Assembly: GCA_024226255.1 (NCBI GenBank)
Contig: JAAELU010000141.1
Coordinates: 23,093 to 87,092, forward strand
From: a bacterium
GTDB taxonomy: Bacteria > Actinomycetota > Acidimicrobiia > Spongiisociales > UBA5794
Reading direction: 5' to 3'
Length of the DNA stretch: 64,000 nt
The notes beneath the pieces were generated by a model. That model was not told the origin of the DNA, did no database searches, and saw nothing but the letters and a program-made list of their open reading frames with translations. The first letter of the stretch is position 1. Every line of letters begins with the position of its first letter. Positions 40,442 through 63,984 of this stretch are shown here, piece after piece. Made by a program: the position numbers and the translations under genes.

Positions 40442-41782
40442 CTACTGATCGGCAGGTGTCAGCTGGAACCGGAGAAGTTCTCCTTCTCCCGCGGCTGCCC
40501 CCGCTGACACTCGACTTGGGTCGATTCCAAGGCGGACGAGGTGGGCCCCAATTGCTTCGGCTCTTCCCTGCGCTAGTTCGTCGGGATCGACGCTCCCTTC
40601 TCGCTCCTCGGCATGAACTTCGATCGAGATGTTGAGGTTGGGGTCCGCCTCGAGGAAGGCGACGAGCACAGTCGCCAGCTCGGCCACCTGAGCTGTCGGC
40701 TTCAGTTTGTTGCCCGTGAACGCCTTGCCGCCGGACATGTTGCCGCCAATCCCGGTGCCGTCGGAGCGAAGCGTCCACTGTTCCCCAGAACTCAGGACGG
40801 TGACGATCTCGGGAACTCTCCACAGCATGTAGGTGTCGGCTGTGCCCTCGCTCAATTGGAGCTTGCCGGTGACTTCGAGTTCCTCACCTCCGCGGACTAC
40901 GGCCAACGCGATCGGCTTCCGAACGTCGGCGTTGGCGACGGTTCCTTCTATCGACACGGTGCTGTCACCCGGAGATATGATTTGGAAGTGAGGCAGCTCC
41001 AACGGTGATACGACCACGTTGTTCTTAATGGCGACGTCAGGGCCAAGCGCCTCAGCCAGGCGAGCCACCGCGGCATCAGCCGCGGCCTCATCAACAGCTC
41101 CGCCGGTCAGTGTGGCCCCATCGGCGTCGAGAGTCAGATGGGCGTCGATCAACATTGTGAGAATGGGAACGGTGCCGGGGGCATCTCCCAGCCACGAATG
41201 CGCTACCACTGATCCGTCCACCCCGATCTGATTGCCAACGTTGTCCCCCCAGAAGTCTTCGCTGGCATCGGCCAGAGCACGAATTGTGCCGGCGGCCGGG
41301 ACCGTTCCCCGTAGCGCCAGCCGGCCCGCACGAACCGTCATAGTCAGCACGGCGCCGGGCTCGGGTGGGGTTGTTGTCGTCGAGGCGACCGGGGGAGTCG
41401 TCGGCGAGACGATGTTGCCGGAGCCTTCGACCCATGTGACCTTGGCGACTCCGCCCATTGCGGCGAGAGCGTTCACTGCACCGTTTTGCTCGTTGGTGGA
41501 GAGGTTGGAGACGATGGTGGCTTGGCGGCCGGTAAACGTGATCTCTTCAATTCGATAACCGGCGTCTGTCAGGGCCTCACGGCTCGCCGATTCGAGACTG
41601 CGCTCTTCAGCTCTAATGCCCCAAGGTATTGCCAGCAAAATGATGGCGCCGAGCGCGACAAACCAGGGCCACTGCTTGCGCAGCGCGGGCCAGCTCTCCC
41701 AGTTACGTGGTCGCGCCTCTTCGAGGCGCTGCCGGATTTCCTCCATACGCCGTGTTCTTCGGCAGGAAATCAGGAGGACCAA
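40442..41782 (-). CDS. OmpA/MotB-family peptidoglycan-associated membrane protein
   Basis: N-terminal TM WPWFVALGAIILLAIPW; C-terminal OmpA-like module NISIEVHAEEREGSVDPDELAQGRAEAIGAHLVRLGIDPSRVSA. Confidence 0.6.
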   Translation of the reverse strand: MVLLISCRRTRRMEEIRQRLEEARPRNWESWPALRKQWPWFVALGAIILLAIPWGIRAEERSLESASREALTDAGYRIEEITFTGRQATIVSNLSTNEQNGAVNALAAMGGVAKVTWVEGSGNIVSPTTPPVASTTTTPPEPGAVLTMTVRAGRLALRGTVPAAGTIRALADASEDFWGDNVGNQIGVDGSVVAHSWLGDAPGTVPILTMLIDAHLTLDADGATLTGGAVDEAAADAAVARLAEALGPDVAIKNNVVVSPLELPHFQIISPGDSTVSIEGTVANADVRKPIALAVVRGGEELEVTGKLQLSEGTADTYMLWRVPEIVTVLSSGEQWTLRSDGTGIGGNMSGGKAFTGNKLKPTAQVAELATVLVAFLEADPNLNISIEVHAEEREGSVDPDELAQGRAEAIGAHLVRLGIDPSRVSAGAAAGEGELLRFQLTPADQ

Positions 41783-41803
41783 AGGCCTGATCCACCGAAA
41801 TGT

Positions 41804-42442
41804 CTAGAGGGTGACGAGCGCCAAGATGAGGAGGGTCTGCCCGGCGTGATAAGTAATCATCGTGATCAGTCTTCCGTTGGCGATTGGGCTGACAAATCGA
41901 TTCCAACCCAATGTGGCATCGGATCCATAGAAGAGGGCCGCTCCGGCTGTGGCGATTGCGTTTGTCGTCGCCGCGGCAGACACGACCATCGCTGAGATGA
42001 CGGTCATGTACAGAGCGACCGGTAACTGGAGGCGAGAGTCCTGGGTGTTTGCTCCGTTCAAGATACGTTTGCCCAGGACGGCGAATGCGATGAGCGCTGC
42101 GCCGAGAGCGACTATCGCGGGAGCCAGGCTGAAACCAGCCAGCACGAGTCCGACGACGTATGCGACATGAGCTGCCAGGAAGGACGCCAGCCCGGCGATG
42201 AACTGGTCGGGCTCCAGCATCAGGAAGACGTCACCGGCCAGGCTGAGGACAAGAGCCAGGATGAACCAGGCCCGTGTCGAAGTTGCTGCGGTGTCTATTG
42301 ACAGCGCCACGCGGATGAGCAAGAGCATTGTGAGTGGCTTGGTGACGAGTAATACAGGTCGTCGAGTTGTGGCGACCGACCACCAATGGATGAGAGCCGA
42401 AACTGCCGTGAGCACTAGGAAGATGACAGCCGTGGCGTTCAT
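41804..42442 (-). CDS. YhhN-family (lysoplasmalogenase-like) integral membrane protein
   Basis: A 212-aa protein with 7-8 predicted TM helices and YhhN-like spacing (family-level call). Confidence 0.45.
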   Translation of the reverse strand: MNATAVIFLVLTAVSALIHWWSVATTRRPVLLVTKPLTMLLLIRVALSIDTAATSTRAWFILALVLSLAGDVFLMLEPDQFIAGLASFLAAHVAYVVGLVLAGFSLAPAIVALGAALIAFAVLGKRILNGANTQDSRLQLPVALYMTVISAMVVSAAATTNAIATAGAALFYGSDATLGWNRFVSPIANGRLITMITYHAGQTLLILALVTL

Positions 42443-42495
42443 GCCCGAACGCTAGCGGGCCGGTCCCGGCCCACTGCTACGATTGCGGCTCGAAC

Positions 42496-42569
42496 GGGCG
42501 CTTAGCTCAGCGGAAGAGCGCTGCCTTCACACGGCAGAGGTCACTGGTTCGAACCCAGTAGCGCCCACC
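42496..42569 (+). tRNA. tRNA-Val (anticodon CAC)
   Basis: gggcgcttagctcagcggaagagcgctgccttCACacggcagaggtcactggttcgaacccagtagcgcccacc. Confidence 0.9.
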
Positions 42570-42803
42570 GATCCAGAAACGTATGCGTGGCTCGTTTTCT
42601 CAATGCTGTCAAAGGGTGTCGGGTAGTGCCCGGTTGGACGATCTCTTAGCCGCGGATAGTCCCCGATCACCTGAGATATGCGAGTGCTGCGGACACCATG
42701 CGGACACCAGGTACGTGAGGCGAAACCGTGAGGTCCTGAGAGGGTGTCTTCATGTGCGGGCCCGGGATGCGCGCCACCATGGGTTTCTCCGATTTGGCAA
42801 TGG

Positions 42804-43655
42804 CTAGGCCGACATTGGCTCGGCAGAGGCCAAGGTGGCGATCTGGTCGATGACCTCAGATGCCCGGAGCACGCCGTTGTGCCCGTGGCCCTGTGTGCTC
42901 ACGAGCCCTGCATCCCAACGGTTGGCCAGCAGCTTCGCGTGTTCAATCGGTACCATGTCATCATCAACATCGTGGATGAGCATTGTGCTGTCGGGGACGT
43001 TCATGTCGAGTATCCCGGCTGGAATCCGCTCCCATATGTCCTCGCCAAACCTGTTGTCCATCGATTGCTCAACAGCCTTTGTGACCACCGGCCGAAGCCG
43101 CAGGGTCGCCGCGAAGGTTTCGAGAACTCGACGGGGCCGTAGCTCGGGGGCCAGCAGCACGAGCCTGTCGGCTCTGAGCGAACCTTGCATCGCCACGGAT
43201 GTGGCCATTGCTCCCACTGAGTGTGCGACGACGATGTCGACCTTGCCAAGCGCGTTTCCAGTGATCTCGATGGCGTCCGCCATCTCGAGGGGGTTAGTGG
43301 AACGTCCGGCCTCGATGCCGTGGGCTGGGAGGTCGATGACCACACATCGGTAGCCTTCCTCTGTGAGCCGCAAGGCGATCCGGCGGTATTGTCGCGACGA
43401 CCCGGCCCATCCGTGGATCAGGAGAGCCGTCCGCGAACCATCACCTATCTCATACCCGTGGACCACTGATCCAGCCGACTCGAAGGTGATCCTCCGTGCC
43501 CCCGGTGGAATCTGCGGTGACCGAGGTCGAGCGAGCGGGAACGGCGTGAACCACAGATATGTGGCGATACGCCCTGCAAGCTTTGGGGCAACAAACGAGA
43601 GGGCTCCGAGGCCGACGCTTGTCGTCTTCTGCGCTACCGCCTCTCTTCGACTCAT
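42804..43655 (-). CDS. alpha/beta hydrolase
   Basis: LLIHGWAGSSRQY; nucleophile elbow VVAHSVGAMA; ATGA coupling to an upstream small ORF. Confidence 0.7.
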   Translation of the reverse strand: MSRREAVAQKTTSVGLGALSFVAPKLAGRIATYLWFTPFPLARPRSPQIPPGARRITFESAGSVVHGYEIGDGSRTALLIHGWAGSSRQYRRIALRLTEEGYRCVVIDLPAHGIEAGRSTNPLEMADAIEITGNALGKVDIVVAHSVGAMATSVAMQGSLRADRLVLLAPELRPRRVLETFAATLRLRPVVTKAVEQSMDNRFGEDIWERIPAGILDMNVPDSTMLIHDVDDDMVPIEHAKLLANRWDAGLVSTQGHGHNGVLRASEVIDQIATLASAEPMSA

Positions 43656-43837
43656 GCGACCCTCTTGACCTGAGGTCGGTCTTCTTGGGTCAACCGGGCG
43701 GGCTCTGCGATCGGACCAACGCCGTAGTTGAGATCGGCGATGACCTCTTCGGGCGAGAGGTCGAGTTCAAACCCATCGAGATTGATCGCGATCCTTCCTT
43801 TTGCACCCTGTCGGTCTCGGTTTCTGAGCTTCTGCAA
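43652..43837 (-). CDS. candidate small protein (61 aa) co-transcribed with the hydrolase
   Basis: GGAGGAG RBS 2 nt before ATG 43837 (a very short spacer, atypical); MLQKLRNRDRQGAKGRIAINLDGFELDLSPEEVIADLNYGV...; the stop overlaps the hydrolase ATG. Confidence 0.35.
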   Translation of the reverse strand: MQKLRNRDRQGAKGRIAINLDGFELDLSPEEVIADLNYGVGPIAEPARLTQEDRPQVKRVA

Positions 43838-43850
43838 CATGGCTCCTCCA

Positions 43851-43902
43851 TAGTGAGTTGCGATACACAACTCACTATTGCACAGTCCGTTGCAAAGTGC
43901 AA
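43851..43902. promoter_or_regulatory. Operator-like palindromes in the divergent promoter region between the small-ORF/hydrolase operon and the HxlR regulator gene
   Basis: TAGTGAGTTG-cgataca-CAACTCACTA (a perfect 10-bp inverted repeat, 43851-43877) and TTGCAC-N13-GTGCAA (43878-43902). Confidence 0.55.
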
Positions 43903-43923
43903 CCCACTAAGATATGATGATGG

Positions 43924-44440
43924 CATGGCATCGACAGAGTTGAGCGAAACGGGCACCAACCGCTACGACATTTTCGACTGCTCCGTGGCGCGGACACTCG
44001 AACACGTCGGAGAGCGATGGACATTCATGGTCCTACGAGACGCGTTCTACGGCATCCGCCGTTTCGACGACTTCCAAGCCAGTCTCGGCGTCGCGAGAAA
44101 CATCCTGACCAAACGTCTCGCCAAGCTCGTGGACGCCGGGATCATGCGCAAGGAGCCCTACCAGGAGCATCCGACCCGGTACGAGTACGTGCTAACTGAG
44201 AAAGGGCGGGATCTTGTGCCGGTCCTCACCTCCCTTCTCGCATGGGGCGACAAGTGGGAGACGGAGAACGAGCCGCCGGTGCGACTAATCCACACCACCT
44301 GTAAGAACGTGATGCACAGCCAGGCCGTCTGCTCCGAATGCGGCGACGAGATCAACGCCTTCAATCTGCACCTGGACCCAGTCCCCCAGATCGTGATCGA
44401 ACGGGTCGTCAAAGCGAAGCTGGCAGCCCACACGACCTAA
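43924..44440 (+). CDS. HxlR-family (MarR-like) transcriptional regulator with a Cys-containing C-terminal extension
   Basis: CSVARTLEHVGERWTFMVLRDAFYGIRRFDDFQASLGVARNILTKRLAKLVDAGIMRK HxlR helix-turn-helix; C-terminal CKNVMHSQAVCSECGDE. Confidence 0.7.
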
Positions 44441-44449
44441 CCGCGGGCT

Positions 44450-44490
44450 CTGGTTTGGGCTTGATAGGTTCGAACCCAGTAGCGCCCACC
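44450..44490 (+). repeat. Tail-only copy of the repeat: a 24-bp direct repeat of the tRNA-Val(CAC) 3' end (ggttcgaacccagtagcgcccacc, 44467-44490)
   Basis: Identical to 42546-42569. The preceding ctggtttgggcttgata resembles the repeat-body terminus (ggttgctggcgcggataa). Confidence 0.8.
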
Positions 44491-44673
44491 AGAGGCATCG
44501 TTGCAGGGCAACGGGACCGGTCGAAGAAGCAGCCAGTCCGTCTGACATTCCCCAACGAGCCGAACTACGGTGACCTGTGGGTGCGACGACTCGTCACCCA
44601 CATGTACGAGCACCTTGGCCAGGTGATCGCGATCGTGCCTCCCTGCAGCCGCTGACCGACCGATCGGAAGATT

Positions 44674-45261
44674 ATGAGCATGTCCGACTACACACCGACC
44701 TTCTTCCCCGGACCCGCCGACTTCCGAGCGTGGCTCGACGAGCACCACGCGACGATCGACCACCTTTGGGTGGGCTATTACAAGAAGGCGACGAACAAGC
44801 CGTCCGTGACCTGGGAAGACACGGTCGCTGAAGCGCTGTGCTACGGATGGATCGACGGGATCCGGAGGTCTCGCGACGACGAGAGTTACATGGTGCGCTT
44901 CACACCTCGCAAATCGAGGAGCGTCTGGAGCCAAAGAAATATCGACCTCGTCGAACGGCTCACCTCGGAAGGCCGCATGAAAGCTGAGGGTCTCGCTGCC
45001 TTCGCCTTTAAGGATGTGCACCCAGACAGTGGGTACGCGACAGCGAAGTTCGACGGAGCGTTGACGGACCAGATGATCTCCCGATTCAAGGCGACCACGG
45101 GCGCATGGGAGTTCTACCAAGAGCAACCGCCCGGCTACCGCCGGCAAACGGCACGTTGGGTGATGAGCGCGAAGCGTGAGGAGACTCGAGAGCGGCGGCT
45201 GGCGACGCTGGTCGACGACTCGGGGAACCGACGGCGCATCAAGCAGCTTCGTAGGGGCTGA
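44674..45261 (+). CDS. YdeI/OmpD-associated family protein (DUF1801-like)
   Basis: 195 aa, containing HLWVGYYKKATNKPSVTWEDTVAEALCYGWIDGIRR and a C-terminal REETRERRLATLV; family-level assignment. Confidence 0.5.
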   Translation: MSMSDYTPTFFPGPADFRAWLDEHHATIDHLWVGYYKKATNKPSVTWEDTVAEALCYGWIDGIRRSRDDESYMVRFTPRKSRSVWSQRNIDLVERLTSEGRMKAEGLAAFAFKDVHPDSGYATAKFDGALTDQMISRFKATTGAWEFYQEQPPGYRRQTARWVMSAKREETRERRLATLVDDSGNRRRIKQLRRG

Positions 45262-45437
45262 AGGTGGCAGTTGGCGGGACGTCGTTGCCAACTAGATGGG
45301 CGATACGACTGATCTGGAGGCAGACCAACACGAGCCCGACCGGCCTGGACCTGCCCGCAGGTTCCTCAAACGACGCCGCGGCAAGCTGCCGAGTGTCGGG
45401 TGGGGCTAGGCTCGGATACGGCGACTGGAGGGTTCTG

Positions 45438-47330
45438 GTGAACGACGTATTCGTCTGCCACGCATCTGAAGATCGGTCTTTCGCCGAGGCGGCTGTGGCG
45501 GCGCTCGAGGCCCGCGGGATTCGGTGCTGGATCGCCCCGCGAGACGTTCCTCCCGGTTCGGACTATGCGGGGGCCATCCTGTCGGGGATCAGCACTAGCC
45601 GAGTATTGCTCCTCATCTTCTCCCACTGGTCGAACGAGTCGCCGCACGTGCCCCGGGAAGTGGAGCGGGCAGTCAATCGGAAAATGCCAATAGTCCCGTT
45701 CCGTTTGGATGAGGTCGCTCCGAGCGGCCCCCTCGAGTATTTCATCAGCGGTGCCCAATGGTTTGATGCCGCCTCGGGCAGCCCCGATGACCACCTCCCG
45801 GCTCTGGTCGACGCAGTCAGGCGGCTGGTATCCCCCGCAGCCACGCCAGCCCCCGTGGCCGAGCGGGAGGACTTCAGCCGCGAAGTGCGCGAGCAACTGG
45901 AGACGCTGGTCTTGCGGTACGGCACCGAGTTGGCCGGTGACGCGCGCCGGCTGCAAGCGGTGCTCCGTGACATGGTTGGAGAACATCCAGCCGAGATTTC
46001 GGCGCTGGTCACTGCAGCGGAGGAAGGGGTGCCGGAGATGTTGCTGCACTCCTCGGACCCAGGAGCCTCGGCCACCCGGGAACGCCTGGCCCGCCGCTTG
46101 AAGGAAAGGCGTGCGCTCGGCATGGAGGCGGCGGAGTGGGCGGTAGCGTCGTGGGCACGTGCCCTCCGGATCCCACCGTCCCCTTCTCAGCCGCCGCTGG
46201 ACCTCGGGGAGACGAAGCCGGCCTCCGCCGCCGAACCAGAGAAGACCCGTCCCGTGGAGATAGACGAGAGTCTCACGCCCGCCGTGTCATCGGGCCAACC
46301 AGCGGCTCCGCCCGTGCCGCCGGCGAAAGAGGTCCCCCGAGCAAGTGCCGAGCCGGCGCAGGCGGCACCGTCAACCCCGCCGCAACCCCGGGTAGCGCAA
46401 TCGCCGCCGCGTCCCGACGGGCGTCCCGCCTGGATCTATGCGCTGCTTGCCGTGATCGGCGTCGCGCTCGTTGTTGGAGCCGTCGTTCTGTTCTCCGGGG
46501 ATGAGGCGACCGGTCCGGCAGCGACCGATGTCACCACCACCACCGGAGTCACGACCAGCGGGCTCGGCACTACGCCGAGCACGCTCACTCCGACCGCACT
46601 ATCGGCTGACTCCGAACGAATCGTTGCCCGTGGGCAGGTACGGATCGGCGTTCGGGACAACCCCTTGCCGCCCCTCACAACCTTCGAGGCGGATCTCTCG
46701 CAGGAGGTTGTCTCGCGTCTGTTCGGCGACATCGCCGTGGAGTTGGTGCCGGTCGCCGTCCTGGACCGCTTCGCCGTTCTCGAGGCTGGTGATGTCGACT
46801 TCCTGATCCGTTTGACGACCCACACCACGAGCCGGGAGGAGCTGGCGTCGTTCACCAGCCCATACTTCCTCGATGGATTGGCGTTCGCATTTGGGCCGGA
46901 CCGCGGGATCTCCTCGATCAGCGGTCTGGCCGGTCTGACGATCGGAGTGTTTGACGGAACAAGCACGGAACTGGAGGTCCGGCAGGCCTTGGAGGGGAAT
47001 GGAGTGGGTGCAACGATCGTCGGATTCGACGACACCGACGCCGTATCCAATGCTCTCGTAGCCGGCGAAGTCGACGCCATTGGCGTGTATTGGGCGCAGG
47101 CTCTCAACTACGTAGAGACCCTCGGTGTCGACGCATTCCTCTACACGCTGCTAGAGCCGCTCACAGTCGTGGTGTCACTTGAGAACCCCGGCTTGCGCGA
47201 CGATCTCGACCGGGTCTTGCGGGAAATGGTGGCCGACGGGACCTGGCGACAACTGTATGAACTCCGGTTCGTGGAACCGCCGCCCTGGAGCGAGGATGAG
47301 ATGTCGACCTTCCCGCCGGTCGACCGATGA
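45438..47330 (+). CDS. TIR-domain single-pass membrane protein with a C-terminal extracytoplasmic solute-binding (SBP_bac_3-like) domain
   Basis: GGAGGG-N5-GTG start. TIR_2 pattern VFVCHASEDRSFAEAAVAALEARGIRCWIAPRDVPPGSDYAGAILSGISTSRVLLLIFSHWSNESPHVPREVERAV. A helical middle region, a Pro-rich linker, TM WIYALLAVIGVALVVGAVVLF, then an SBP_bac_3-like domain (FLIRLTTHTTSREELASFTSPYF, LTIGVFDGTSTE, VAGEVDAIGVY). Confidence 0.75.
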   Translation: MNDVFVCHASEDRSFAEAAVAALEARGIRCWIAPRDVPPGSDYAGAILSGISTSRVLLLIFSHWSNESPHVPREVERAVNRKMPIVPFRLDEVAPSGPLEYFISGAQWFDAASGSPDDHLPALVDAVRRLVSPAATPAPVAEREDFSREVREQLETLVLRYGTELAGDARRLQAVLRDMVGEHPAEISALVTAAEEGVPEMLLHSSDPGASATRERLARRLKERRALGMEAAEWAVASWARALRIPPSPSQPPLDLGETKPASAAEPEKTRPVEIDESLTPAVSSGQPAAPPVPPAKEVPRASAEPAQAAPSTPPQPRVAQSPPRPDGRPAWIYALLAVIGVALVVGAVVLFSGDEATGPAATDVTTTTGVTTSGLGTTPSTLTPTALSADSERIVARGQVRIGVRDNPLPPLTTFEADLSQEVVSRLFGDIAVELVPVAVLDRFAVLEAGDVDFLIRLTTHTTSREELASFTSPYFLDGLAFAFGPDRGISSISGLAGLTIGVFDGTSTELEVRQALEGNGVGATIVGFDDTDAVSNALVAGEVDAIGVYWAQALNYVETLGVDAFLYTLLEPLTVVVSLENPGLRDDLDRVLREMVADGTWRQLYELRFVEPPPWSEDEMSTFPPVDR

Positions 47331-47715
47331 TTCTCCGCCGGCTGGATTCGGGCGGGCCCTGTGGCGGACTCGCGATGCCTGGGCTCCGCTCGGAGGTGCA
47401 GTCGTGAATAACCGCAAATCGTCCTTGGGTGAGCCGAGAGACGCCTGAGCGCGCCGGAGCGCTAGAGCCCGGAAGGCGGGAATCGGCTTCGGCACAACTG
47501 GCGTATCCAGGCCGTCCGTAGAAATCGAGCCGGAAGGAGATCGGCACGCAGACCCGTCGGGGGCGACGCCATTTCGGGCGCTGCTATGTTCCGAGACCTT
47601 CTCAGTGGCGCCCACAAATGTCAGCCTGCTGGAGCTGGTCAAGGAGCGCGCTCACTACGACAGCAGCTCGGTGATGCAATAGCGGACCGGAAGTCAGCCA
47701 TAGTGGGGATGACAA

Positions 47716-48540
47716 ATGGCAACCCGACGAAGGCGAAGACTCTTGGGCGTGGTGGGAGCGTTAGCTCTGTTGCTGCTCGCGGTGGCCGGCCTATGGGCGG
47801 GCCAGCGTCGACTGATCTACTTTCCGGATGGCGATACTCCGTCTCTCGATCTGGTGGGGCCCGGCTGGGTGGAGGTGTCGTACGCCACTTCGGACGACCT
47901 CACGCTCACGGCCTGGTATCACGCCCCGAACCCCGGCCGCCCGATCGTGATTGTTCTCAACGGCAATGCGGGCAACAGGGGCGATCGGGCCGCGCTGGGC
48001 CGAGGTCTGAACGCCGCCGGTTTCGGAGTGCTACTCACTGACTACCGCGCGTATGGAGGTAATCGCGGGAACCCCACGGAGGACGGACTGGCTCTCGACG
48101 CGCGGGCTGCTGTGGGCTTTGTCGCGGAGCGGACATCGGGTAGTCCACTCGTCTACTTCGGCGAATCACTCGGCGCCGCGGTCGCCGTCGAACTGGCGGT
48201 CACTCACCCGCCGGCTGCGCTCGTGCTCCGTTCGCCATTCACCTCACTGGCCGACATGGGACACGTTCACTACCCGTGGTTACCCGTCGGGCTTCTTCTC
48301 AAAGATCGGTATCCGTCGCACGAGCGCATGGAATCGGTTCATGCTCCAACTCTCGTCATCGCCGGCGCGGCCGACTCCATCGTGCCCATCGAGCAGAGTC
48401 GGGAGATCTATGCGGCTGCTCCCGAGCCGAAGCACTTCATGATGATCCCCGGTGCCGACCACAACGATCCCGAGTTGGGGCACGGTGCGAGCATGATCGA
48501 CACCGTCACGGCATTCATTGCCCGGTCAGTAGCGGACTAG
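47716..48540 (+). CDS. alpha/beta hydrolase (membrane-anchored)
   Basis: N-terminal TM LLGVVGALALLLLAVAGLWA; nucleophile elbow YFGESLGAAVAV; a C-terminal Asp/His region. Confidence 0.65.
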   Translation: MATRRRRRLLGVVGALALLLLAVAGLWAGQRRLIYFPDGDTPSLDLVGPGWVEVSYATSDDLTLTAWYHAPNPGRPIVIVLNGNAGNRGDRAALGRGLNAAGFGVLLTDYRAYGGNRGNPTEDGLALDARAAVGFVAERTSGSPLVYFGESLGAAVAVELAVTHPPAALVLRSPFTSLADMGHVHYPWLPVGLLLKDRYPSHERMESVHAPTLVIAGAADSIVPIEQSREIYAAAPEPKHFMMIPGADHNDPELGHGASMIDTVTAFIARSVAD

Positions 48541-48727
48541 CCGGCAGCCAAACGGGGCACCACGCCCGCGCAGTCAGAAACGCATCTGTCGGTCGTTTCG
48601 TCAACCCTGACGATCCCGAAGGCTGGATTGGAACCACCGTACCTCGAATGTCGCAAGGGCGGCTATCTGCTGCCGCTGCCGGATCGGACCGAGTGAAATG
48701 GCAAGGACACGTACCAACGAGGGAACG

Positions 48728-49957
48728 ATGCTTTCCAGCAAGTTCACAATCGGAGTTGTAGCTTGTGCACTCTTGGCGATCGCATGTGGTGGCGCCGGCA
48801 CGAGTACGATCGTGTTGCCCGGAGAGGCGGAGCCGCCCGCACTCTCAGACACGTCGGATGGTGCGGCGCCACCCGCCCAACCTCTCTTCCCTGAGGGCCC
48901 CTCGGCTCTGCGCGAATTCGGCTCGGACCAGTTCCCGACGCCCCTGGTCGAGCTGTCGGACATCATCGCGGGCGGGCCACCCCCTGACGGCATCCCACCG
49001 ATCGACGATCCCGTTTTTGTCGGCGTTGCCGAGAGAGTGGATTCCTATCGGGACAACGCTCCGGTCGTTGCGCTCGAGATCAACGGCGACGCGAGGGCGT
49101 ACCCGGTTGCTGTCATGATCTGGCACGAGATCGTCAACGACACGGTCGGTGGAGTACCGGTCACCGTCACATACTGTCCGCTCTGCAACTCGGCGGTCAC
49201 CTACGGACGAGTGATCGACGGCACGGAGACCACCTTCGGGACGTCGGGTCTGCTGTTGGCCTCGGCGCTTGTCATGTACGACCGGGCAACCGAATCATTG
49301 TGGACCCACTTCGACGGACGGGCCGTCGTCGGCGTGCTGACCGGCACGCCACTGGATGTGTACGGATCTCCGTTGATGGCGTGGCGCGATTTCCGGACCA
49401 ACTATCCACATGGGCTCGTGCTCGACGAGACCAAGACGGGCCACAGCCGTGACTACGGCCGCAATCCCTACTTCGAGTATGACGATCCCGACACCCGGCC
49501 GTTCTTGTACTTCGGCGATGTCGATTCCAGAGCGCGAGCGAAGGAAAGAGTTGTGGGCGTGGCATTCGAAGGCGTGGACGTGGCATACAGTCTTCAGTCG
49601 CTCAGGGGAGAGGGACCCGCCGTCACTCCGGTCATCGTCGGGGGATCCGAGCTGGTGGTGCTCTGGGTGCCGGGTCAGGCCAGCGCGCTCCACGGTCCAA
49701 GCGTGCAGTACGGCCGCGACGTCGGCAGCGTTGGCGTGTTCGAGCCAATCGTCGCCGGCCGGCGACTGACGCTGGCGGCCGATGGCGACGGTTTCGTCGA
49801 CGCCGAGACCGGCACACGGTGGTCGATCACCGGCGCGGGCGTGTCGGGACCGCTCTCGGGGGACCAACTGCCACACATTCCGCATTTCGACACGTTCTGG
49901 TTCGCCTGGTCGACCTATCGCCCGGGCTCGGAGCTCGTGGGAGCGGTTGGCGAATAG
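48728..49957 (+). CDS. DUF3179-domain lipoprotein
   Basis: Lipobox GVVACALLAIACGG; DUF3179 hallmarks DGIPPIDDPVFV, AYPVAVMIWHEIVND, VTYCPLCNSAVTYG. Confidence 0.65.
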   Translation: MLSSKFTIGVVACALLAIACGGAGTSTIVLPGEAEPPALSDTSDGAAPPAQPLFPEGPSALREFGSDQFPTPLVELSDIIAGGPPPDGIPPIDDPVFVGVAERVDSYRDNAPVVALEINGDARAYPVAVMIWHEIVNDTVGGVPVTVTYCPLCNSAVTYGRVIDGTETTFGTSGLLLASALVMYDRATESLWTHFDGRAVVGVLTGTPLDVYGSPLMAWRDFRTNYPHGLVLDETKTGHSRDYGRNPYFEYDDPDTRPFLYFGDVDSRARAKERVVGVAFEGVDVAYSLQSLRGEGPAVTPVIVGGSELVVLWVPGQASALHGPSVQYGRDVGSVGVFEPIVAGRRLTLAADGDGFVDAETGTRWSITGAGVSGPLSGDQLPHIPHFDTFWFAWSTYRPGSELVGAVGE

Positions 49958-50261
49958 CCGTCGCCGGGTTCTCGTGGAGACAGTCTTCCTCCCAGCCACT
50001 GGAGCCTCCGAACTGTGCTGGATCCAAGGCATCGACCCCAGAGATGGGACCGCCGCGAAACTAGGGAAGCCGCTGATCGTCGACGCCGCATTGGTACGGC
50101 TGAGCGCGATTCCTGGCGCACGTGCCTTCCCAAGCCATTAGAGACCTTCGGCTCTACACGCATTAGAAGGCATATGTAGGAATAGGGCCAAACACAGAGC
50201 CATTCTTGCAGCAGGATCCGTTCCTGCGGGTCGCGCTGCCCGTATAGAAAGGACTGCTCGC

Positions 50262-50510
50262 ATGACTCTGGCGGACGACACAAGCGTGTCTTTGACATTG
50301 GATCTGAAGGGCATGCTCTGCCCGATGCCGGTCGTCGAGATTTCGAGGGCGATCAAGCAAGTTGAAGTTGGCCAGATAGTCGAGGCTACGGCAACGGATC
50401 CTGGAGTGATGGCCGACATCCCGGCGTGGTGCCACAGCACAGGCAACACTCTCATGGCGTTGGAAAAGGCGGAGTCTCACTTCGTCTTCAGGGTCCGGCG
50501 CGACGCTTGA
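50262..50510 (+). CDS. tusA: TusA-family sulfurtransferase
   Basis: DLKGMLCPMPVVEISRAIKQVEVGQIVEATATDPG (CPxP active-site motif). Confidence 0.75.
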   Translation: MTLADDTSVSLTLDLKGMLCPMPVVEISRAIKQVEVGQIVEATATDPGVMADIPAWCHSTGNTLMALEKAESHFVFRVRRDA

Positions 50511-50525
50511 CCTGGATGGCAATGT

Positions 50526-51173
50526 ATGACATTCGATTCCGCTCTGCACTTCGTTGAGTTCGAGCTCCAGATCATTGCCCTGACTTGGATGGCCCTGCTC
50601 TACACCATCAAGGCAGTTCAGTTATCCAGATTGCCGATGCCCTGGGAGCAGGGTCCCGCTAGAGGCAGCCGAGCCGCCGGTTCGGCGCGCTCATACCTCG
50701 GGATCTTCGTTCCGCAGAGCCGGGAGAGCTCGCGGCTCCACCCATGGCGCTGGGTCGAATTCGGCGCGTACCATGTCGGGGCGGCGGTGGCGATCCTCAT
50801 CACGTTCACCTTGCCATTTGCTCCCGGCCTCATGACGCGTGCCGTTTCGATCGTGTGTGCCGTTTTGATCGCGCCGGCGTTGCTGGTCGGCTTCGCCAAG
50901 ATCTACAGACGCCTGGCGCAGCCGGACCTGCGCTTCATCAGCTCGCTGGACGATCACGTGTCACTGATCACGCTGCAGTCGTTCTTCCTCACTGCGGTGA
51001 TGGTCTTGCTGTTCGACACTCCCGGCTGGCGCATGGCCTACTTCCTGGTGGTGGCGGCATTCCTGTTCTACGTACCGTTCTCGAAGATCAGCCACTACGT
51101 CTACTACGGGTTCTCTCACTTCCTGACCGGAAGCCGCTACGGCTGGCGGGGCGTGACACCGGGGAGGACGTGA
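50526..51173 (+). CDS. NarI/DsrM/HdrE-like heme-b membrane anchor
   Basis: Five TM helices with conserved His (HFVEFEL, AYHVGAAV, SLDDHVSLI, SKISHYVYYGFSHF). Lies immediately upstream of, and overlaps, the HdrD-like gene. Confidence 0.55.
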   Translation: MTFDSALHFVEFELQIIALTWMALLYTIKAVQLSRLPMPWEQGPARGSRAAGSARSYLGIFVPQSRESSRLHPWRWVEFGAYHVGAAVAILITFTLPFAPGLMTRAVSIVCAVLIAPALLVGFAKIYRRLAQPDLRFISSLDDHVSLITLQSFFLTAVMVLLFDTPGWRMAYFLVVAAFLFYVPFSKISHYVYYGFSHFLTGSRYGWRGVTPGRT

Positions 51174-51174
51174 C

Positions 51175-52494
51175 ATGACGAGCGACATCGAAGTCCCGAT
51201 CACTGACCGGGCCAAGGAGGAGCTGGAGAAGCGGTTCAACCGGTTGGTGGGTGTATCGGCAACGAACCTGTGCACACACTGCGGATGGTGCATCGACTCA
51301 TGTCACGTCTACCTGGCCACGGGCGATGTTCGTCTGTCCCCGGTCGGCAAGGCGGACCTCATTCGGCGCCATTACAAGCGCTCGCACGACTGGATGTCCA
51401 AGGTGTTTCCGCGTTGGACCGGGGCGAAATCGGAGATCACCGAGAACGAGTTCGACGACTGGCTCGAGGCCGCCTTCCAGGCCTGCACACTCTGTGAGCG
51501 TTGTGTCGTCAACTGCCCAATGGGTGTCGAGACGCCGCAGCTGCTGGCGGCAGCGCGCGGCACTCTGACGGCCATTGGCAAGGCTCCCGAGATCCTGGAT
51601 CAGCTCGCCAACGCTGCGATTGCGCGGGAGGAATTCCTGGACAGCTTCTCTGAGTACTTCCTCGACCAGATCACCGTGCTCGAGGCTGAAGTCCGGGAGA
51701 AGCTGGACGACCCGACGGCGCGGATCCCGGTGAATGAACCGGCGGAGATTCTCTACGTGCCGCTGTCCGGGGCGCACACGATCGTCCCCCAGGCGATCAT
51801 CTTCAACGCGGTTGGTGCCTCATGGTCGCTGTCAATGTTCGAAGCCTCCAACTATGCGATGTTCCTCGGTGATACGGCCCGGGCCAAGAAGATTGCGATG
51901 CGAGTCATCAATGAGGCTGAGCGCCTCGGGGTGAAGGAACTCGTCATCTCCGAGTGTGGCCATGCATATACAGCCTTCCGTTGGGAGGCGCCTAAGTGGT
52001 TCGGAGGCCCGCTGCCCTTCAAGGTGCGCAGCATCGTTGAGGTGCTCGATGAGTACGTGGCCGAGGGCCGACTGCCGATAGATCCGAGCATCAACTCGGA
52101 GCCACTCACCTATCACGACCCGTGCAACCTGGGTCGCAAGGGTGGGGTCTTTGACGAACCGCGCCGGGTAATCGAGGCGGCGTCGACAGACTTTCGTGAG
52201 ATGACGCCCACCAAGGCCCAGAACTTCTGTTGCGGTGGAGGTGGTGGCCTCGTGGCTCAGCTCGACTGGCGCGACCAGCGGATCGCCTTCGGCGGCCCCA
52301 AAGCAGACCAGATTGCCGAGACCGGAGCCACCCGGGTCATCACGTCGTGTGACAACTGCCGCCACCAGATAAACGAGCTAGGCGACAGCTACGGCCTCGG
52401 TTTGTCCGAGGTTGTGTCTGTATCCGAGCTGCTCGTGGATGCACTCCTCGCAGCTCGTCAGCCGGTACAACAACTTGCCAAGGAGGAAATGTGA
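51175..52494 (+). CDS. HdrD/DsrK/GlpC-like Fe-S protein (2x[4Fe-4S] plus two CCG domains)
   Basis: CTHCGWCIDSCHV and CTLCERCVVNCPM ferredoxin motifs; Cys-rich CCG motifs YHDPCNLGRKGG and QNFCCGGGGG. Confidence 0.7.
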   Translation: MTSDIEVPITDRAKEELEKRFNRLVGVSATNLCTHCGWCIDSCHVYLATGDVRLSPVGKADLIRRHYKRSHDWMSKVFPRWTGAKSEITENEFDDWLEAAFQACTLCERCVVNCPMGVETPQLLAAARGTLTAIGKAPEILDQLANAAIAREEFLDSFSEYFLDQITVLEAEVREKLDDPTARIPVNEPAEILYVPLSGAHTIVPQAIIFNAVGASWSLSMFEASNYAMFLGDTARAKKIAMRVINEAERLGVKELVISECGHAYTAFRWEAPKWFGGPLPFKVRSIVEVLDEYVAEGRLPIDPSINSEPLTYHDPCNLGRKGGVFDEPRRVIEAASTDFREMTPTKAQNFCCGGGGGLVAQLDWRDQRIAFGGPKADQIAETGATRVITSCDNCRHQINELGDSYGLGLSEVVSVSELLVDALLAARQPVQQLAKEEM

Positions 52495-53009
52495 GCGATG
52501 ACGACGGTCGCAGGAAGATGGCGTTGATCGCCTCTCAGGGAACCCTCGATTGGGCCTATCCGCCCTACATCCTGGCGTCCACAGGGGCCGCGATGGATTG
52601 GGATGTGCGGATCTTCCACACCTTCTACGGCCTGACACTTCTCAAGAAGAAGCTCAAGGCGAAGGTAGCGCCATACGGCAATCCTGCGATGCCCATGAAG
52701 ATGCCCTTCGGACCGCAGGGGTTCCAGTCGATCGAATGGCCGATCCCCAACATCGTCCAGACCAACGTTCCGGGCTTCAATCGCCTGGCGACGGTGCTGA
52801 TGAAGCGCACTTTCAAGAAGAAGGGCGTCCAGTCGGTCGAAGCCATGCGCGACATGTCCCTGGAATTAGGTGCCACCCTCATTGGGTGTCAGATGACGAT
52901 GGACGTATTCGGCTTTGATCTCGAGGAATTCATTCCCGGAGTCGAGATCGCCGGTGCGGCCGCCTTCCTTGCGTTCGCCGCCGACGCCGACATTCAGTTG
53001 TTCGTCTAG
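52491..53009 (+). CDS. DsrE/DsrF-like family protein
   Basis: LIASQGTLDWAYPPYILASTGAAMDWDVRIFHTFYGLTLL; ATGA-type overlap with the HdrD-like gene. Confidence 0.5.
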   Translation: MSDDDGRRKMALIASQGTLDWAYPPYILASTGAAMDWDVRIFHTFYGLTLLKKKLKAKVAPYGNPAMPMKMPFGPQGFQSIEWPIPNIVQTNVPGFNRLATVLMKRTFKKKGVQSVEAMRDMSLELGATLIGCQMTMDVFGFDLEEFIPGVEIAGAAAFLAFAADADIQLFV

Positions 53010-53054
53010 GGAGGACTTGACGCGGCAGGCGCCGTGCGATGGAGGCCGCCGGCA

Positions 53055-53214
53055 ATAGGCGGTCAGGAAGTCGTGCCGCAATTGCGCGTGCCGCGTTTCT
53101 TCTGCGACGTGAAGTCATTTGAACTCTCTGGGCGGCCCTTTCCGGTGGTCTGGTGGCGTCTGCGGTGGCACCGTTTGGTTGCGCGGATAAGGCTCGAGCC
53201 CAGTAGCGCCGACC
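53055..53214 (+). repeat. Copy d of the tRNA-Val-3'-end-terminated repeat (degenerate)
   Basis: Body features ...gcgtgccgcgtttcttctg..., tgaactctctgggcggc, tggtggcg and gcgcggataagg; the 3' end is ggctcgagcccagtagcgccgacc (53191-53214). Confidence 0.65.
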
Positions 53215-53233
53215 TAGATAGCCGAGCGTCGGC

Positions 53234-54028
53234 TCACGATCCCTGGCGTCGGACTGCCTGTGCGTCGACCCAGCCCGACAGACCACTGGCAGGATCGGTC
53301 AGATGGGCCCAGCCACTGTCCTCCCGCTCGAGTTGGTACCACTGCGCCGGCTCGGCGGAGCCGATCACGGCGTCCGTATTCTCCAGGCCGTACATCGGGG
53401 TGGGTTGCTCGACGAACACCCATTCGGGTTGCGCTACTGGTGACTTTGGAGGGGCTGGTGCGGCCGCGGCCCGTTCGACGGTTGGGGGTGCCGGGGCCTT
53501 GGCCTTCTTGTGGCTCGAAACAGGCTGGGCCACCTCTGTATCCACGGCCGGGGCGGCGGGCACGTCGGGAAGCGGCACGGGAGCTGGGCGTGATGCAATC
53601 CAAGCCTCCTCAGCCCGCATTTCCTCTTCGACGCTGTCGAGCATCGTGGCGCCGGCTCGTGCCAGGAGGCGCGTTGCCTGGACGGCAGCGGCAAGGGTTC
53701 CGGCAGTTGTGGTTGCGCCGTCCAGCCACAGTCGAGCAGTGATCTCCTTTTGGTCCTCAGCGGCGTCGAATTCAGCCAGGTCAGCCCGGCCGAGGAGCAG
53801 TCCGTCGAGAGCAAAGCGGACCCGACTGTCGACCTGGTCCGATGGCCCCGACGGCCAGCGCGCCGGCGACGAGGCAACCAATCGAATCGCTGGTCCGTCG
53901 ATGATGATCCCGACGCGGTCGCCATCGATTGACGCCTCGTAGCGGAGCGGATCGGCCGTCTTCGAGACGCTGAGCGGTCCGAATCCCGTGTCGACGAGTG
54001 CCTCGAGTAGGTCGGTTGTCATCGCCAT
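53234..54028 (-). CDS. YbjN-like N-domain plus Pro-rich linker plus bacterial SH3-like C-domain protein
   Basis: 264 aa; the C-terminal region WVFVEQPTPMYGLENTDAVIGSAEPAQWYQLEREDSGWAHLTDPASGLSGWVDAQAV resembles SH3b. Confidence 0.45.
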   Translation of the reverse strand: MAMTTDLLEALVDTGFGPLSVSKTADPLRYEASIDGDRVGIIIDGPAIRLVASSPARWPSGPSDQVDSRVRFALDGLLLGRADLAEFDAAEDQKEITARLWLDGATTTAGTLAAAVQATRLLARAGATMLDSVEEEMRAEEAWIASRPAPVPLPDVPAAPAVDTEVAQPVSSHKKAKAPAPPTVERAAAAPAPPKSPVAQPEWVFVEQPTPMYGLENTDAVIGSAEPAQWYQLEREDSGWAHLTDPASGLSGWVDAQAVRRQGS

Positions 54029-62328: not shown

Positions 62329-62402
62329 GGGCTCTCCCGCCCTCTCGGTGACCCAACACTAGGCTTTCTGGCGGTCGAATGGCCGCAGAGCCTGGCTGTG
62401 CC

Positions 62403-63413
62403 TCAAGCTCGGGCACGCGAGACCCGCCAACCCGTGTGCTCCTCTGAAACGGCTGCCTCGGCAGTGTCCACAAACGTTGCCCACTCGTCCTCGTCCTCGA
62501 TCGGCTCCAGGATCGATTCCATTGCCAGGAGCTCGTGGGCAGTGTTCGCGTATGCACGGGCCTGCCGGTCGTATCGCCTGACCCCTGTCCACATCGTGAT
62601 CAATGCCGCCACGAAGCCGGCAACTCCGAGGATGTTGACACCGAAGGAGCCCAAGCCCTGGAGCAGGCCGAAGAGAATCGCCACCGCGCTGGCGAGCACG
62701 AACATCGCGTCCCAGAAACGAGCCAGGTGTTCGTTGGTACGGGCGCGGTCTGAGTACCACGATGCCTGATCGTCCACGCGGCCGGTTGCGTACGCCGCCT
62801 TACGCTGCTCTAGCCCGGTATGGCGTAACTGCCGCATCGCCGGTGTGATCTGGTAGTGAGCGCCACGGGTGGGGGGCGTATGCAGGCTGCCGAGTTCGGC
62901 GAGCAGCTCCCACAGGCGGGCGTTGAAGAGTTGATCCGCCTCCTTGTCGGTGCCTTCTTGCAGAGCGAACGGAACACCGCCTACGGAGTATCGCCACGAC
63001 AGACTCTTGACCGATTCGGCCGCCAGCCGCGCGTCGTACCACGATGCTTCCAGGCTGGACAGCCGTGAATAGACCCGCAACGCCGCGACGGCGAGGAAGG
63101 CTCCTACCCCCACAATGGCAATCTGGTCGACCCCGGTGGCGGCAGCCGCCGTACCTGAGGTGACGCCGATCAGCAGCAGGACGACCTGCGCCTTGATGAC
63201 GCCGAAGAACATGGTGCGTGAGCTGATCGATTCCTTGTCCGCGGCCTGGAAGAGGGCGGGCAAGTCGGAATGCTCCAGCACCATCTCATGGGCTCGTGTG
63301 GGATCCTCCAATCGAACCGTGCCTCCCGCCGCTTTCGTTCCCGTCCACGCTAGTGCTCCGATGGCGGCGGTCGTCGCGGAACTGCGTTTTGGGCTACCGG
63401 CGCTTGAGGACAT
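62403..63413 (-). CDS. tandem 2TM SLATT-like (SLATT_1 plus SLATT_3 / DUF4231-like) membrane protein
   Basis: Two repeats of a TM hairpin plus amphipathic helix with W..RY signatures: FFGVIKAQVVLLLIGV...IAIVGVGAFLAVAALRVYSRLSSLEASWYDARLAAESVKSLSWRY, then FWDAMFVLASAVAILFGLL...ILGVAGFVAALITMWTGVRRYDRQARAYANTAHEL. The start is uncertain (20-nt overlap with the cyclase gene). Confidence 0.5.
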   Translation of the reverse strand: MSSSAGSPKRSSATTAAIGALAWTGTKAAGGTVRLEDPTRAHEMVLEHSDLPALFQAADKESISSRTMFFGVIKAQVVLLLIGVTSGTAAAATGVDQIAIVGVGAFLAVAALRVYSRLSSLEASWYDARLAAESVKSLSWRYSVGGVPFALQEGTDKEADQLFNARLWELLAELGSLHTPPTRGAHYQITPAMRQLRHTGLEQRKAAYATGRVDDQASWYSDRARTNEHLARFWDAMFVLASAVAILFGLLQGLGSFGVNILGVAGFVAALITMWTGVRRYDRQARAYANTAHELLAMESILEPIEDEDEWATFVDTAEAAVSEEHTGWRVSRARA

Positions 63414-63984
63414 ACATGGGGAAGGCGCCGTAGTCCTTGGCGGTGTCGATATGACCTACGTACTCGGGAATCATGCCGGGAACCGGGTCGAGTGCCAAGA
63501 GCGCGGCGGACGAAGCTGTCATGTAGACCTCGCCGGGCGGCGTCCGCGGCTCGATGCGGGCGGTTCGGATCACATGGGTGCCGAAGAACGAAGGCTCCCG
63601 CCTGATCGGGTCCGTTCCCGCATACACGGGCCCGGCGTGTACACCTATGCGCAATCCCATTTCGGGCAAGTCCAACCTGTTGAGGTCGAGTGCGCCGAAT
63701 GTCCGCTGCATCGCCAGCGCCCCGCTGGTGGCTGCGCTGACCGTCCGATATACGAGATAGAGCCCGTCTCCCCAGCTGTTGCGATAGAGCACGTCGTCAC
63801 CAGACGCGTCGATGGAGTCTGCAAGCGCTCCCATCACCGACTCAAAGAAGGTCGGTATCTGTCGCTCATCCAGAGTGCTGAAACCGTGAAAATCGGCAAA
63901 TACCATCGCTCGGAGGTCCCGGGGTGGACCCGCAGAATCCGCCACACGATTGGCCGGGATGTCCGGGTGGCTGCAGGGAACCAC
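63394..63984 (-). CDS. stand-alone class III nucleotidyl cyclase (adenylate/guanylate-cyclase catalytic domain); the 5' end may extend beyond the window
   Basis: CHD motifs MVFADFHGFSTL (metal Asp), SWGDGLYLVY (second Asp), LRIGVHAGPVYAG and GTHVIRTARIE (transition-state Arg). The canonical base-specifying Lys and Asn positions are substituted. The frame is open upstream of GTG 63984 to the sequence end. Confidence 0.7.
   Translation of the reverse strand: MVPCSHPDIPANRVADSAGPPRDLRAMVFADFHGFSTLDERQIPTFFESVMGALADSIDASGDDVLYRNSWGDGLYLVYRTVSAATSGALAMQRTFGALDLNRLDLPEMGLRIGVHAGPVYAGTDPIRREPSFFGTHVIRTARIEPRTPPGEVYMTASSAALLALDPVPGMIPEYVGHIDTAKDYGAFPMYVLKRR

Follow-up and report, generated by a model that had tools for sequence, protein, structure and literature searches.

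How bacterial TIR (Toll/interleukin-1 receptor) proteins are switched on is a central question in prokaryotic immunity, and to our knowledge the characterised examples (Thoeris ThsB, TIR-STING, TIR-SAVED, PycTIR, SpbK and others) all sense cytoplasmic cues. A gene in a 64,000-nucleotide stretch of an acidimicrobial genome (Spongiisociales; assembly GCA_024226255.1, contig JAAELU010000141.1, positions 23,093 to 87,092; hereafter the window, to which all coordinates refer) asks whether a TIR domain might also be governed from outside the cell. The coding sequence at 45438..47330 (+) is complete and specifies 630 amino acids plus a stop codon, and its product is a receptor-like protein in which an N-terminal TIR domain is followed by one transmembrane (TM) helix and a C-terminal domain of the solute-binding protein (SBP) type. 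We propose that it is a one-component transmembrane sensor with an enzyme-type TIR inside the cell and the SBP domain outside, activated by clustering of the ectodomain, and we assign this reading a probability of about one half.

Domain architecture and topology

The order of domains given in a preliminary description of this DNA – TIR, helical module, proline-rich linker, one TM helix and SBP_bac_3 – is recovered by Pfam, by hydropathy and by an AlphaFold2 model built from a 24-sequence alignment. The model contains a TIR domain with a predicted local distance difference test score (pLDDT) above 90, a helical module at residues 148–242, a TM helix at residues 332–352 and a two-lobed alpha/beta ectodomain at residues 390–623, and all of the motifs quoted in that description (FVCHASEDR, CWIAPRDVPPG, FTSPYF, LAGLTIGV and GEVDA) are present in the translation. 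The same full-length architecture is found in P0001 (96% identity; NCBI metagenome contig, locus L001) and in P0002 and P0003 (61% identity; two JGI metagenomes). In comparison with P0002 and P0003 the folded domains are 60–79% identical and the linkers and TM helix 33–44% identical, a contrast such as a functional multidomain protein would be expected to show.

The TIR domain, which is assigned to the cytoplasm, spans residues 1–133 (45438..45836, +). Its identification as TIR_2 is secure: Pfam TIR_2 (PF13676) matches residues 4–118 over profile positions 1–116 of 122 with 79 bits against a cut-off of 28 (E 5.3e-22), and Pfam TIR (PF01582) matches with an E-value of 7e-7. The modelled secondary structure follows a beta-alpha-beta pattern (strands at 4–7, 30–32, 56–61 and 85–89; helices at 10–25, 43–53, 70–80 and 116–131), and the predicted fold is flavodoxin-like, with alternating strands and helices.

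The clade signature CWIAPRDVPPG (residues 30–40; 45525..45557, +) is a Box-2-like BB-loop motif, and its C, W, I, A, P, R and G residues are invariant in an 83-sequence family alignment drawn from many phyla. Also invariant in that alignment are S63, S69 and E75 (alignment numbering; E75 is E74 of the window protein); the REVERA flanking E74 is nearly invariant, and S-x-x-V-x-R-E-V-E-R-A as a whole is invariant or nearly so. E74 is likewise invariant in the alignment of close homologues. We regard E74 (codon 45657..45659, +), in the context S68-P-H-V-P-R-E74, as the putative catalytic glutamate, with the register taken from motif comparison: the spacing from S68 to E74 is presumably that of the S-x-W-C-x-x-E motif which carries the catalytic glutamate of SARM1 (E642), plant TIRs and bacterial NADase TIRs.

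The solved sequences nearest to the domain are all TIRs (PdTIR 3h16, MAL, Hydra TRR-2 and oyster TIR-STING), with PDB sequence matches that cover the N-terminal half only and that align its RDxxPG with the RDxxPG of animal TIRs. This half, RDxxPG included, is nearer to animal TIRs (oyster TIR-STING, Hydra TRR-2, MAL and IL-18RAP) than to most solved bacterial TIRs, of which PdTIR 3h16 alone scores comparably to the animal structures (PDB 6wt6, 4w8h, 3ub2 and 7fch). Because we weigh the invariant glutamate above the resemblance of the N-terminal half to animal TIRs, we infer that the domain is of enzyme type and NADase-competent. It might instead be a non-enzymatic adaptor, an interaction module like those of Toll-like receptors and MyD88 that recruits a cytoplasmic protein with no involvement of NAD+, and the several paralogues present in many genomes could then heteromerise. 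Such a role seems improbable: the glutamate at the putative catalytic position and its flanking motif are invariant in 83 diverse members, scaffold-type TIRs generally lack that glutamate, and no conserved partner gene is present in the neighbourhoods of the window gene and of its relatives P0005 and P0006.

Behind the TIR domain lies a cytoplasmic all-alpha module of approximately 100 residues (145–245; 45870..46172, +), modelled at residues 148–242 with pLDDT values of 70–92 and carrying the signature RRVxALLRDxxGExRxEIxALxxAAEEGV ... WAVxxWAxAL. The module folds confidently (pLDDT 93) and is shared by L002 and L003. It matches no Pfam family and has no structural relative in the PDB, nor any viral structural relative in BFVD at E≤0.001. 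The module also occurs without a TIR domain, in P0086 (module, TM helix and SBP domain) and in the small proteins P0215 and P0216, the two proteins returned by a profile search with the module (a word-indexed protein search). It appears to represent a new and undescribed domain family.

The module is connected to the membrane by a Pro/Ala-rich cytoplasmic tether (residues 246–329; 46173..46424, +), which is predicted to be disordered (pLDDT 35–44) and is 38% identical to that of P0002/P0003. The single TM helix follows at residues 330–353 (46425..46496, +); this is the one hydrophobic segment of the protein, with a maximal Kyte-Doolittle 19-mer mean of 2.87, the runner-up (1.75) falling inside the SBP fold. 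A Thr/Gly-rich extracytoplasmic stalk, evident in the translation (residues 354–389; 46497..46604, +), leads to the ectodomain. In the model pLDDT is below 50 at residues 255–330 (Pro/Ala-rich) and 354–382 (Thr-rich), and thus both flanks of the helix are modelled as flexible.

The protein has neither a signal peptide nor a lipobox, its TM helix being internal and preceded by 329 cytoplasmic residues. The helix is flanked on its N-terminal side by R318, R325 and R329 and on its C-terminal side by D355, E356 and D364, and this distribution of charge favours a topology with the N-terminus inside and the C-terminus outside, which we regard as very probable. The ectodomain is taken to be extracytoplasmic because the same SBP subfamily forms the ectodomain of the kinases P0095 and P0149 and occurs as the lipoprotein P0214. 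Both considerations agree with the orientation originally proposed and with the description of the protein as receptor-like but inverted relative to Toll-like receptors, with the TIR domain inside at the N-terminus and the SBP domain outside.

An origin of this combination in an artefact – a chimeric open reading frame (orf) created by mis-assembly or frameshift, or a wrongly chosen start codon – needs consideration, as the window derives from an uncultured-type genome and the reading frame is open from 45264 to 47330 (+), with 58 in-frame codons preceding the GTG at 45438. The upstream gene, of the YdeI/OmdA family, has its stop at 45261, 3 nt before 45264, and the 58 codons are therefore most likely non-coding; they abut that neighbour and have no counterpart in the homologues, whose starts coincide with the residue equivalent to GTG 45438 (MSDVFVCHAS / VLVSDVFVCHAS). 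A Shine-Dalgarno-like GGAGGG, read directly in the sequence at 45427..45432 (+), is separated from the GTG by a 5-nt spacer. GTG 45438 is thus confirmed as the start, and with the identical full-length architecture of P0001, P0002 and P0003 in three independent assemblies an artefact was ruled out, the chance of one being negligible in our estimation. Automatic gene calling might carry the protein too far upstream, into the open frame at 45264–45437.

The ectodomain of solute-binding type

The ectodomain (residues 390–623; 46605..47306, +) is an SBP_bac_3 domain of class F with a Venus-flytrap fold, including the subfamily tail PPPWSEDEMSTFPPVDR, as identified by Pfam, PDB sequence matches, Foldseek and alignments. 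Pfam SBP_bac_3 (PF00497) matches residues 416–608 with 51.3 bits against a cut-off of 26.4 (E 1.3e-13). When the model is compared with the PDB by Foldseek the domain groups with polar amino-acid-binding proteins (probability 1.00, best E-value 1.5e-12), its relatives being AncCDT-1, ArgBP and glutamate- and cysteine-binding proteins with a TM-score to target of approximately 0.5; the SBP_bac_3 assignment is well founded on these two results. A phmmer search of PDB sequences with the ectodomain retrieves AncQR (1.2e-15), PEB1a and Mycobacterium tuberculosis GlnH (3e-10). Among NCBIfam models there are sub-threshold matches to Lys/Arg/Orn-, Asp/Glu- and cystine-binding proteins, all transporter-SBP models scoring far below their cut-offs, and a weak match, far below threshold, to the TM and ectodomain part of the mycobacterial kinase StpK7 (E 2.8e-5; 22.8 bits, the cut-off being 900).

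The domain belongs to a subfamily with the core motifs RIGV..., NTTHTxSRE, YFLDG and DGTWQ and the tail PPPWTxxEMLxxPPVDR. This C-terminal extension, PPPW(T/S)xxEMxxxPPV(D/N)R at 47256–47327 (residues 607–630), reaches beyond the Pfam SBP_bac_3 match and is also present in P0095, P0149, P0129, P0214, L085 and L086; it is modelled, with low confidence, as a short helix at the very end of the protein.

Members of the subfamily are found in a variety of contexts. P0214 is a lipoprotein (lipobox LIAGC) and was the one protein returned by a word-indexed protein search with the ectodomain alone; L085 and L086 have just a short N-terminal TM anchor; and in P0095 and P0149 the domain is the ectodomain of a Hanks-type kinase (Pkinase, TM helix, SBP; 38–40% identity, same tail). 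It stands behind the helical module without a TIR domain in P0086, and in P0129 behind a TIR domain from another clade together with a coiled coil. A third TIR-TM-SBP_bac_3 fusion, P0020, has a more canonical SBP domain and no helical module. The TIR-TM-SBP_bac_3 arrangement arose independently at least three times (in the family of the window protein, in P0129 and in P0020), and because the fusion is convergent we argue that the coupling of SBP sensor and TIR is functional. A metagenome scan with an ectodomain pattern gave three loci, all encoding TM-anchored SBPs without an output domain, which are too few for an estimate of how often the domain is fused to TIR as opposed to kinase.

In an alignment with the arginine-/glutamine-binding AncQR the carboxylate-binding residues T461 and R466 are kept, and the canonical aspartate of VDAxxxD is replaced by Y551 (window approximately 47088–47090). 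We take this aspartate to be the residue that binds the alpha-ammonium group of the ligand in GlnBP (D157) and HisJ (D161). The position is occupied by F, N, N, G and S in five other ectodomains linked to a TIR domain or to the helical module, so that all three independent fusions are affected, and by aspartate in both kinase-linked proteins (P0095 and P0149) and in the lipoprotein. A free alpha-amino acid is a doubtful ligand because the alpha-ammonium-binding aspartate has given way to tyrosine, and the amino-acid-binding function at first ascribed to the domain is not supported, R466 notwithstanding. The pattern of loss in the TIR- and module-linked domains suggests either that the ligand has changed systematically or that the binding of small ligands has been lost.

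SBP_bac_3 proteins are classically the receptors of ABC (ATP-binding cassette) transporters, and some relatives carry nothing more than an N-terminal TM anchor (L085 and L086) or a lipobox (P0214), so that the protein could be imagined as a membrane-tethered SBP of an uptake system, handing a solute to a transporter whose genes lie elsewhere, or as a chemosensory accessory, with the TIR domain an unrelated or regulatory appendage. We consider this very unlikely. No ABC permease or ATPase gene is present among the ten flanking orfs (40445–53939), that is, within approximately 5 kb upstream and 6.5 kb downstream; the canonical ligand-binding aspartate is gone; and the threefold independent recurrence of the TIR fusion and the presence of the same ectodomain on kinases point to signalling. 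The protein shares with binding proteins of the GlnH/HisJ/ArtJ class the fold, the Pfam SBP_bac_3 family and the carboxylate-binding arginine, but it is fused to TM and cytoplasmic domains instead of being secreted or lipidated and has tyrosine for aspartate; with no transporter genes at its flanks, it falls outside the functional class of ABC-transporter SBPs.

Domains of this type are known to serve in signalling: M. tuberculosis GlnH signals to PknG via GlnX, and BvgS and EvgS are Venus-flytrap sensor histidine kinases with a periplasmic SBP-type sensor domain. BvgS and EvgS resemble the window protein in giving the sensory role in transmembrane signalling to an SBP-type domain, and differ from it in their N-terminal ectodomains, rigid helical linkers and histidine-kinase output, in place of flexible tethers and a TIR output. 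Another counterpart is provided by the Hanks-type receptor Ser/Thr kinases (P0095 and P0149; mycobacterial StpK7/MSMEG_1200 type, NCBIfam NF052427), which have the same order of N-terminal output domain, one TM helix and C-terminal ectodomain, the same SBP subfamily at 38–40% identity and the same PPPWT..EM..PPVDR tail. Their output is a kinase rather than a TIR domain with a novel helical module, and their alpha-amino-binding aspartate is kept rather than replaced.

A class of TIR proteins with exchangeable ectodomains

The occurrence of the architecture was surveyed in protein clusters, in genomes and in databases. When 1.84 billion cluster representatives were scanned with HMMER, only the P0001 cluster covered the whole protein; more than 1,100 clusters matched at E≤1e-30, and the best 150 were overwhelmingly matches to the N-terminal TIR domain. 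A genome scan with the TIR signature CWIAPRDV / LEYFIS, using one genome per species, gave at least 596 pattern matches, and 572 of the matches listed were confirmed as relatives within the TIR clade. The clade is present in Bacteria (Acidimicrobiia, Chloroflexota, Acidobacteriota, Planctomycetota, Verrucomicrobiota, Gemmatimonadota, Proteobacteria, Bacillota and Armatimonadota) and in Archaea (Methanomicrobiales, Bathyarchaeia and Thermoplasmatota). The closest loci among the matches listed are L002 and L003, both in metagenome-assembled genomes of Acidimicrobiia, with 43% identity over residues 1/2–273/352; the similarity covers the cytoplasmic part and in L002 extends to the TM helix.

Eighty-eight orfs from the best 80 loci plus L001 were inspected for their organisation. 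Approximately 73 of them have an N-terminal TIR domain, exactly one strong TM helix 150–340 residues in, and a C-terminal region of 100–800 residues. Similarly, 114 of the 174 database proteins with an N-terminal CWIAPRD motif have one downstream TM helix (a further 12 have several). The C-terminal domains of the class include TPR, Sel1, ankyrin, FGE-sulfatase, YARHG, PknH_C, LCCL, trypsin/PDZ and BioY, and in a sub-family of Acidimicrobiia that shares the helical module they include DUF6777, PQQ_2 propellers and DUF1080 / 3-keto-disaccharide-hydrolase repeats. YARHG, the PQQ propeller, FGE-sulfatase and PknH_C are ectodomains common to kinases and the TIR-TM class. The window protein has the features that define the class, with the motifs CWIAPRDxxPG and SxxVxREVERA, one TM helix and a C-terminal extracytoplasmic region, and the membership of the class, spread over phyla of Bacteria and Archaea, probably runs to hundreds.

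Genes of the class are often tandem or clustered paralogues with differing C-terminal domains (four in L070, three in L015, and two in L002, L076 and L084), arrays that resemble a diversified receptor repertoire.

The preliminary description had called a TIR protein gated by an extracellular ligand unusual. This holds for the open-access literature searched, in which we found no such paper, but not for sequence space, where the TIR-TM-ectodomain arrangement is frequent and it is the SBP_bac_3 version that is rare. No description of a class of transmembrane receptors with TIR output was found in the open-access full-text literature, and mention elsewhere is possible. Membrane-spanning prokaryotic TIRs go unmentioned in a 2020 survey of TIR diversity, and Kaur et al. 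2021 noted fusions of TIR and kinase domains to domains of lectin fold (NPCBM and FGS). The domains and the principle of the receptor are known, and the class of TIR-output transmembrane receptors appears to be undescribed.

Toll-like and IL-1 receptors are likewise single-pass proteins whose binding domain is extracellular and whose TIR domain is cytoplasmic, Box 1 and the Box 2 RDxxPG are similar, and activation by induced proximity is likely to be a shared logic. The window protein, however, is inverted (N-terminal TIR, type II), has an SBP domain in place of leucine-rich repeats (LRR) or immunoglobulin domains, and carries a catalytic-type glutamate in a TIR domain that is probably an enzyme and not a mere scaffold. 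With an order that is the inverse of the LRR-TM-TIR type I arrangement and with an SBP ectodomain it is not a Toll-like receptor, and we see no evidence of common descent with Toll-like receptors for the architecture as a whole.

Proposed mechanism and the SLATT-linked paralogue

In the one-component sensor that we propose, a ligand or partner would drive dimerisation or clustering of the ectodomains outside the cell, and the clustered ectodomains would concentrate the tethered TIR-helical modules in the cytoplasm. As the TM helix has a flexible segment on either side, the signal would have to cross the membrane as a change of proximity or oligomeric state, and coupling by proximity is the most likely; a rigid conformational push would be precluded by the flexibility of tether and stalk. 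TIR domains form a composite active site upon self-association and are activated in this way. The assembled TIR domains would cleave NAD+, causing either its depletion or the production of an ADP-ribose-derived signal, possibly of the cyclic ADP-ribose (cADPR) type, and the helical module may act as an oligomerisation or autoinhibitory element. The output could be growth arrest through NAD+ depletion, or a signal to an effector such as a SLATT protein encoded in the same genome. More generally, a single TM helix joins this TIR clade to ectodomains that are interchangeable, in parallel to the receptor Ser/Thr kinases, with which ectodomain families are shared.

Several observations weigh against this proposal. 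The catalytic register of E74 depends on a motif comparison. The ectodomain model has low confidence at residues 472–480 and 556–573 in addition to its modest TM-scores (approximately 0.5) against solved SBPs, and a domain that lacks the alpha-amino-binding aspartate may bind no small ligand whatever. No effector, partner or defence gene adjoins the gene among the ten flanking orfs, and the relatives P0005 and P0006 lie among unrelated housekeeping genes. The pN/pS ratio (nonsynonymous to synonymous polymorphism) against the 96% homologue is 0.53 with 43 differences only, a value that is compatible with purifying selection and weak as evidence.

The ten orfs that flank the gene encode an OmpA-like protein, YhhN, two alpha/beta hydrolases, HxlR, YdeI/OmdA, DUF3179, a CCG/4Fe-4S protein and two proteins without a Pfam match. 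Searched with PADLOC, the window protein gives weak generic TIR matches, those to ThsB models having an E-value of 2.5e-6 over residues 2–60. A second TIR gene follows P0006. The protein with an OmpA-family C-terminal domain is encoded at 40442–41782 (−), approximately 3.7 kb upstream of the gene, and in L002 an OmpA-family gene (7093–8244, −) lies between two TIR paralogues, which may be a coincidence.

At approximately 13 kb from the gene the window contains a paralogue (60001–62328, −) that the preliminary description had missed. It has a TIR domain of 57% identity and the same helical module at 49% identity, followed by a TM helix and a DUF6777 ectodomain. It lies 75 nt downstream of a gene for a two-TM effector of the SLATT_3+SLATT_1/DUF4231 type (62403–63413, −), which in turn is overlapped by 20 nt by a gene for a class III nucleotide cyclase of 196 amino acids (Guanylate_cyc; 63394–63984, −). 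The three genes form an apparent cyclase-SLATT-TIR operon (60001–63984, −), which has the look of a hybrid cassette of defence type whose TIR protein is a membrane receptor. SLATT/DUF4231 genes also flank members of the clade in L023, L076 and L019.

Thoeris systems are divided into types I–XI, and the combination of TIR and SLATT is the experimentally validated type VII, in which canonical cADPR made by the TIR protein activates the SLATT effector (preprint 10.64898/2025.12.03.692087). Systems that combine a cyclase with TM or TIR proteins are known as Pycsar and Pucsar; their effectors differ, and the added cyclase of the operon is reminiscent of them. The window protein resembles Thoeris ThsB in its TIR_2-type domain and in the conserved glutamate at the putative catalytic position, and the paralogue resembles type VII in that a TIR gene stands next to a SLATT effector gene. 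The ThsB proteins described, in contrast, are soluble, cytoplasmic and effector-adjacent, whereas the window protein is membrane-tethered, with a domain outside the cytoplasm and without an effector gene next to it. Thoeris as defined does not include it, the paralogue alone following a SLATT gene.

The paralogue raises the possibility, which we consider rather unlikely, that the window protein is a surface sentinel of a Thoeris-like immunity. The ectodomain would sense not a nutrient but an event at the envelope, such as the adsorption of a phage, the presence of one of its proteins or damage to the cell wall, or would be a decoy of a surface protein used by phages, and clustering of the TIR domains would generate a cADPR-type signal that activates a SLATT pore-forming effector. 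The SBP sensor and the DUF6777 sensor of the paralogue would both feed the one SLATT effector 15 kb away, in the manner of multiple ThsB proteins. Such a role would be in keeping with the position of the paralogue directly downstream of the SLATT and cyclase genes, with the SLATT genes beside clade members at three other loci and with the cADPR signal of type VII Thoeris. It would also suit the tandem arrays with differing ectodomains, the absence of the canonical amino-acid-binding aspartate from all TIR-linked SBPs, and the presence among the ectodomains of lectin-fold domains and of FGE-sulfatase domains associated with diversity-generating retroelements, for which a function in binding invaders was proposed by Kaur et al. 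2021. Set against it are the housekeeping-type genes that surround the window gene, which has no effector as a neighbour, the weak and generic character of the PADLOC matches, and the low frequency of SLATT neighbours (approximately 4 of approximately 80 loci, by phmmer with a single query); that the two would act in trans across 15 kb is speculative, and the link to phage is likewise hypothetical. The clustering-activated sensor as such, whatever its cue, is the reading that we prefer.

The gene is a clean example of a putative enzyme-type TIR joined by one TM helix to exchangeable ectodomains. If activation by clustering of the ectodomain is correct, bacterial NAD+-derived signalling would extend to external cues, and the protein would offer a tractable bacterial model of proximity-induced TIR activation, in which the SBP fold is suited to ligand screening; it would also sharpen the debate on the evolutionary origin of receptor-TIR logic. 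For specialists the class and its SLATT link are of greater interest than the single protein. A more ambitious and rather unlikely possibility is that the class constitutes a large prokaryotic family of cell-surface receptors for patterns or ligands which signal directly through an enzymatic TIR domain in the cytoplasm, a functional mirror of Toll-like receptors, and that the two encoded here feed a cADPR-type signal to the SLATT pore effector. Immunity or cell fate would in that event be triggered from outside, for example by phage adsorption or an extracellular cue, instead of from inside the cell.

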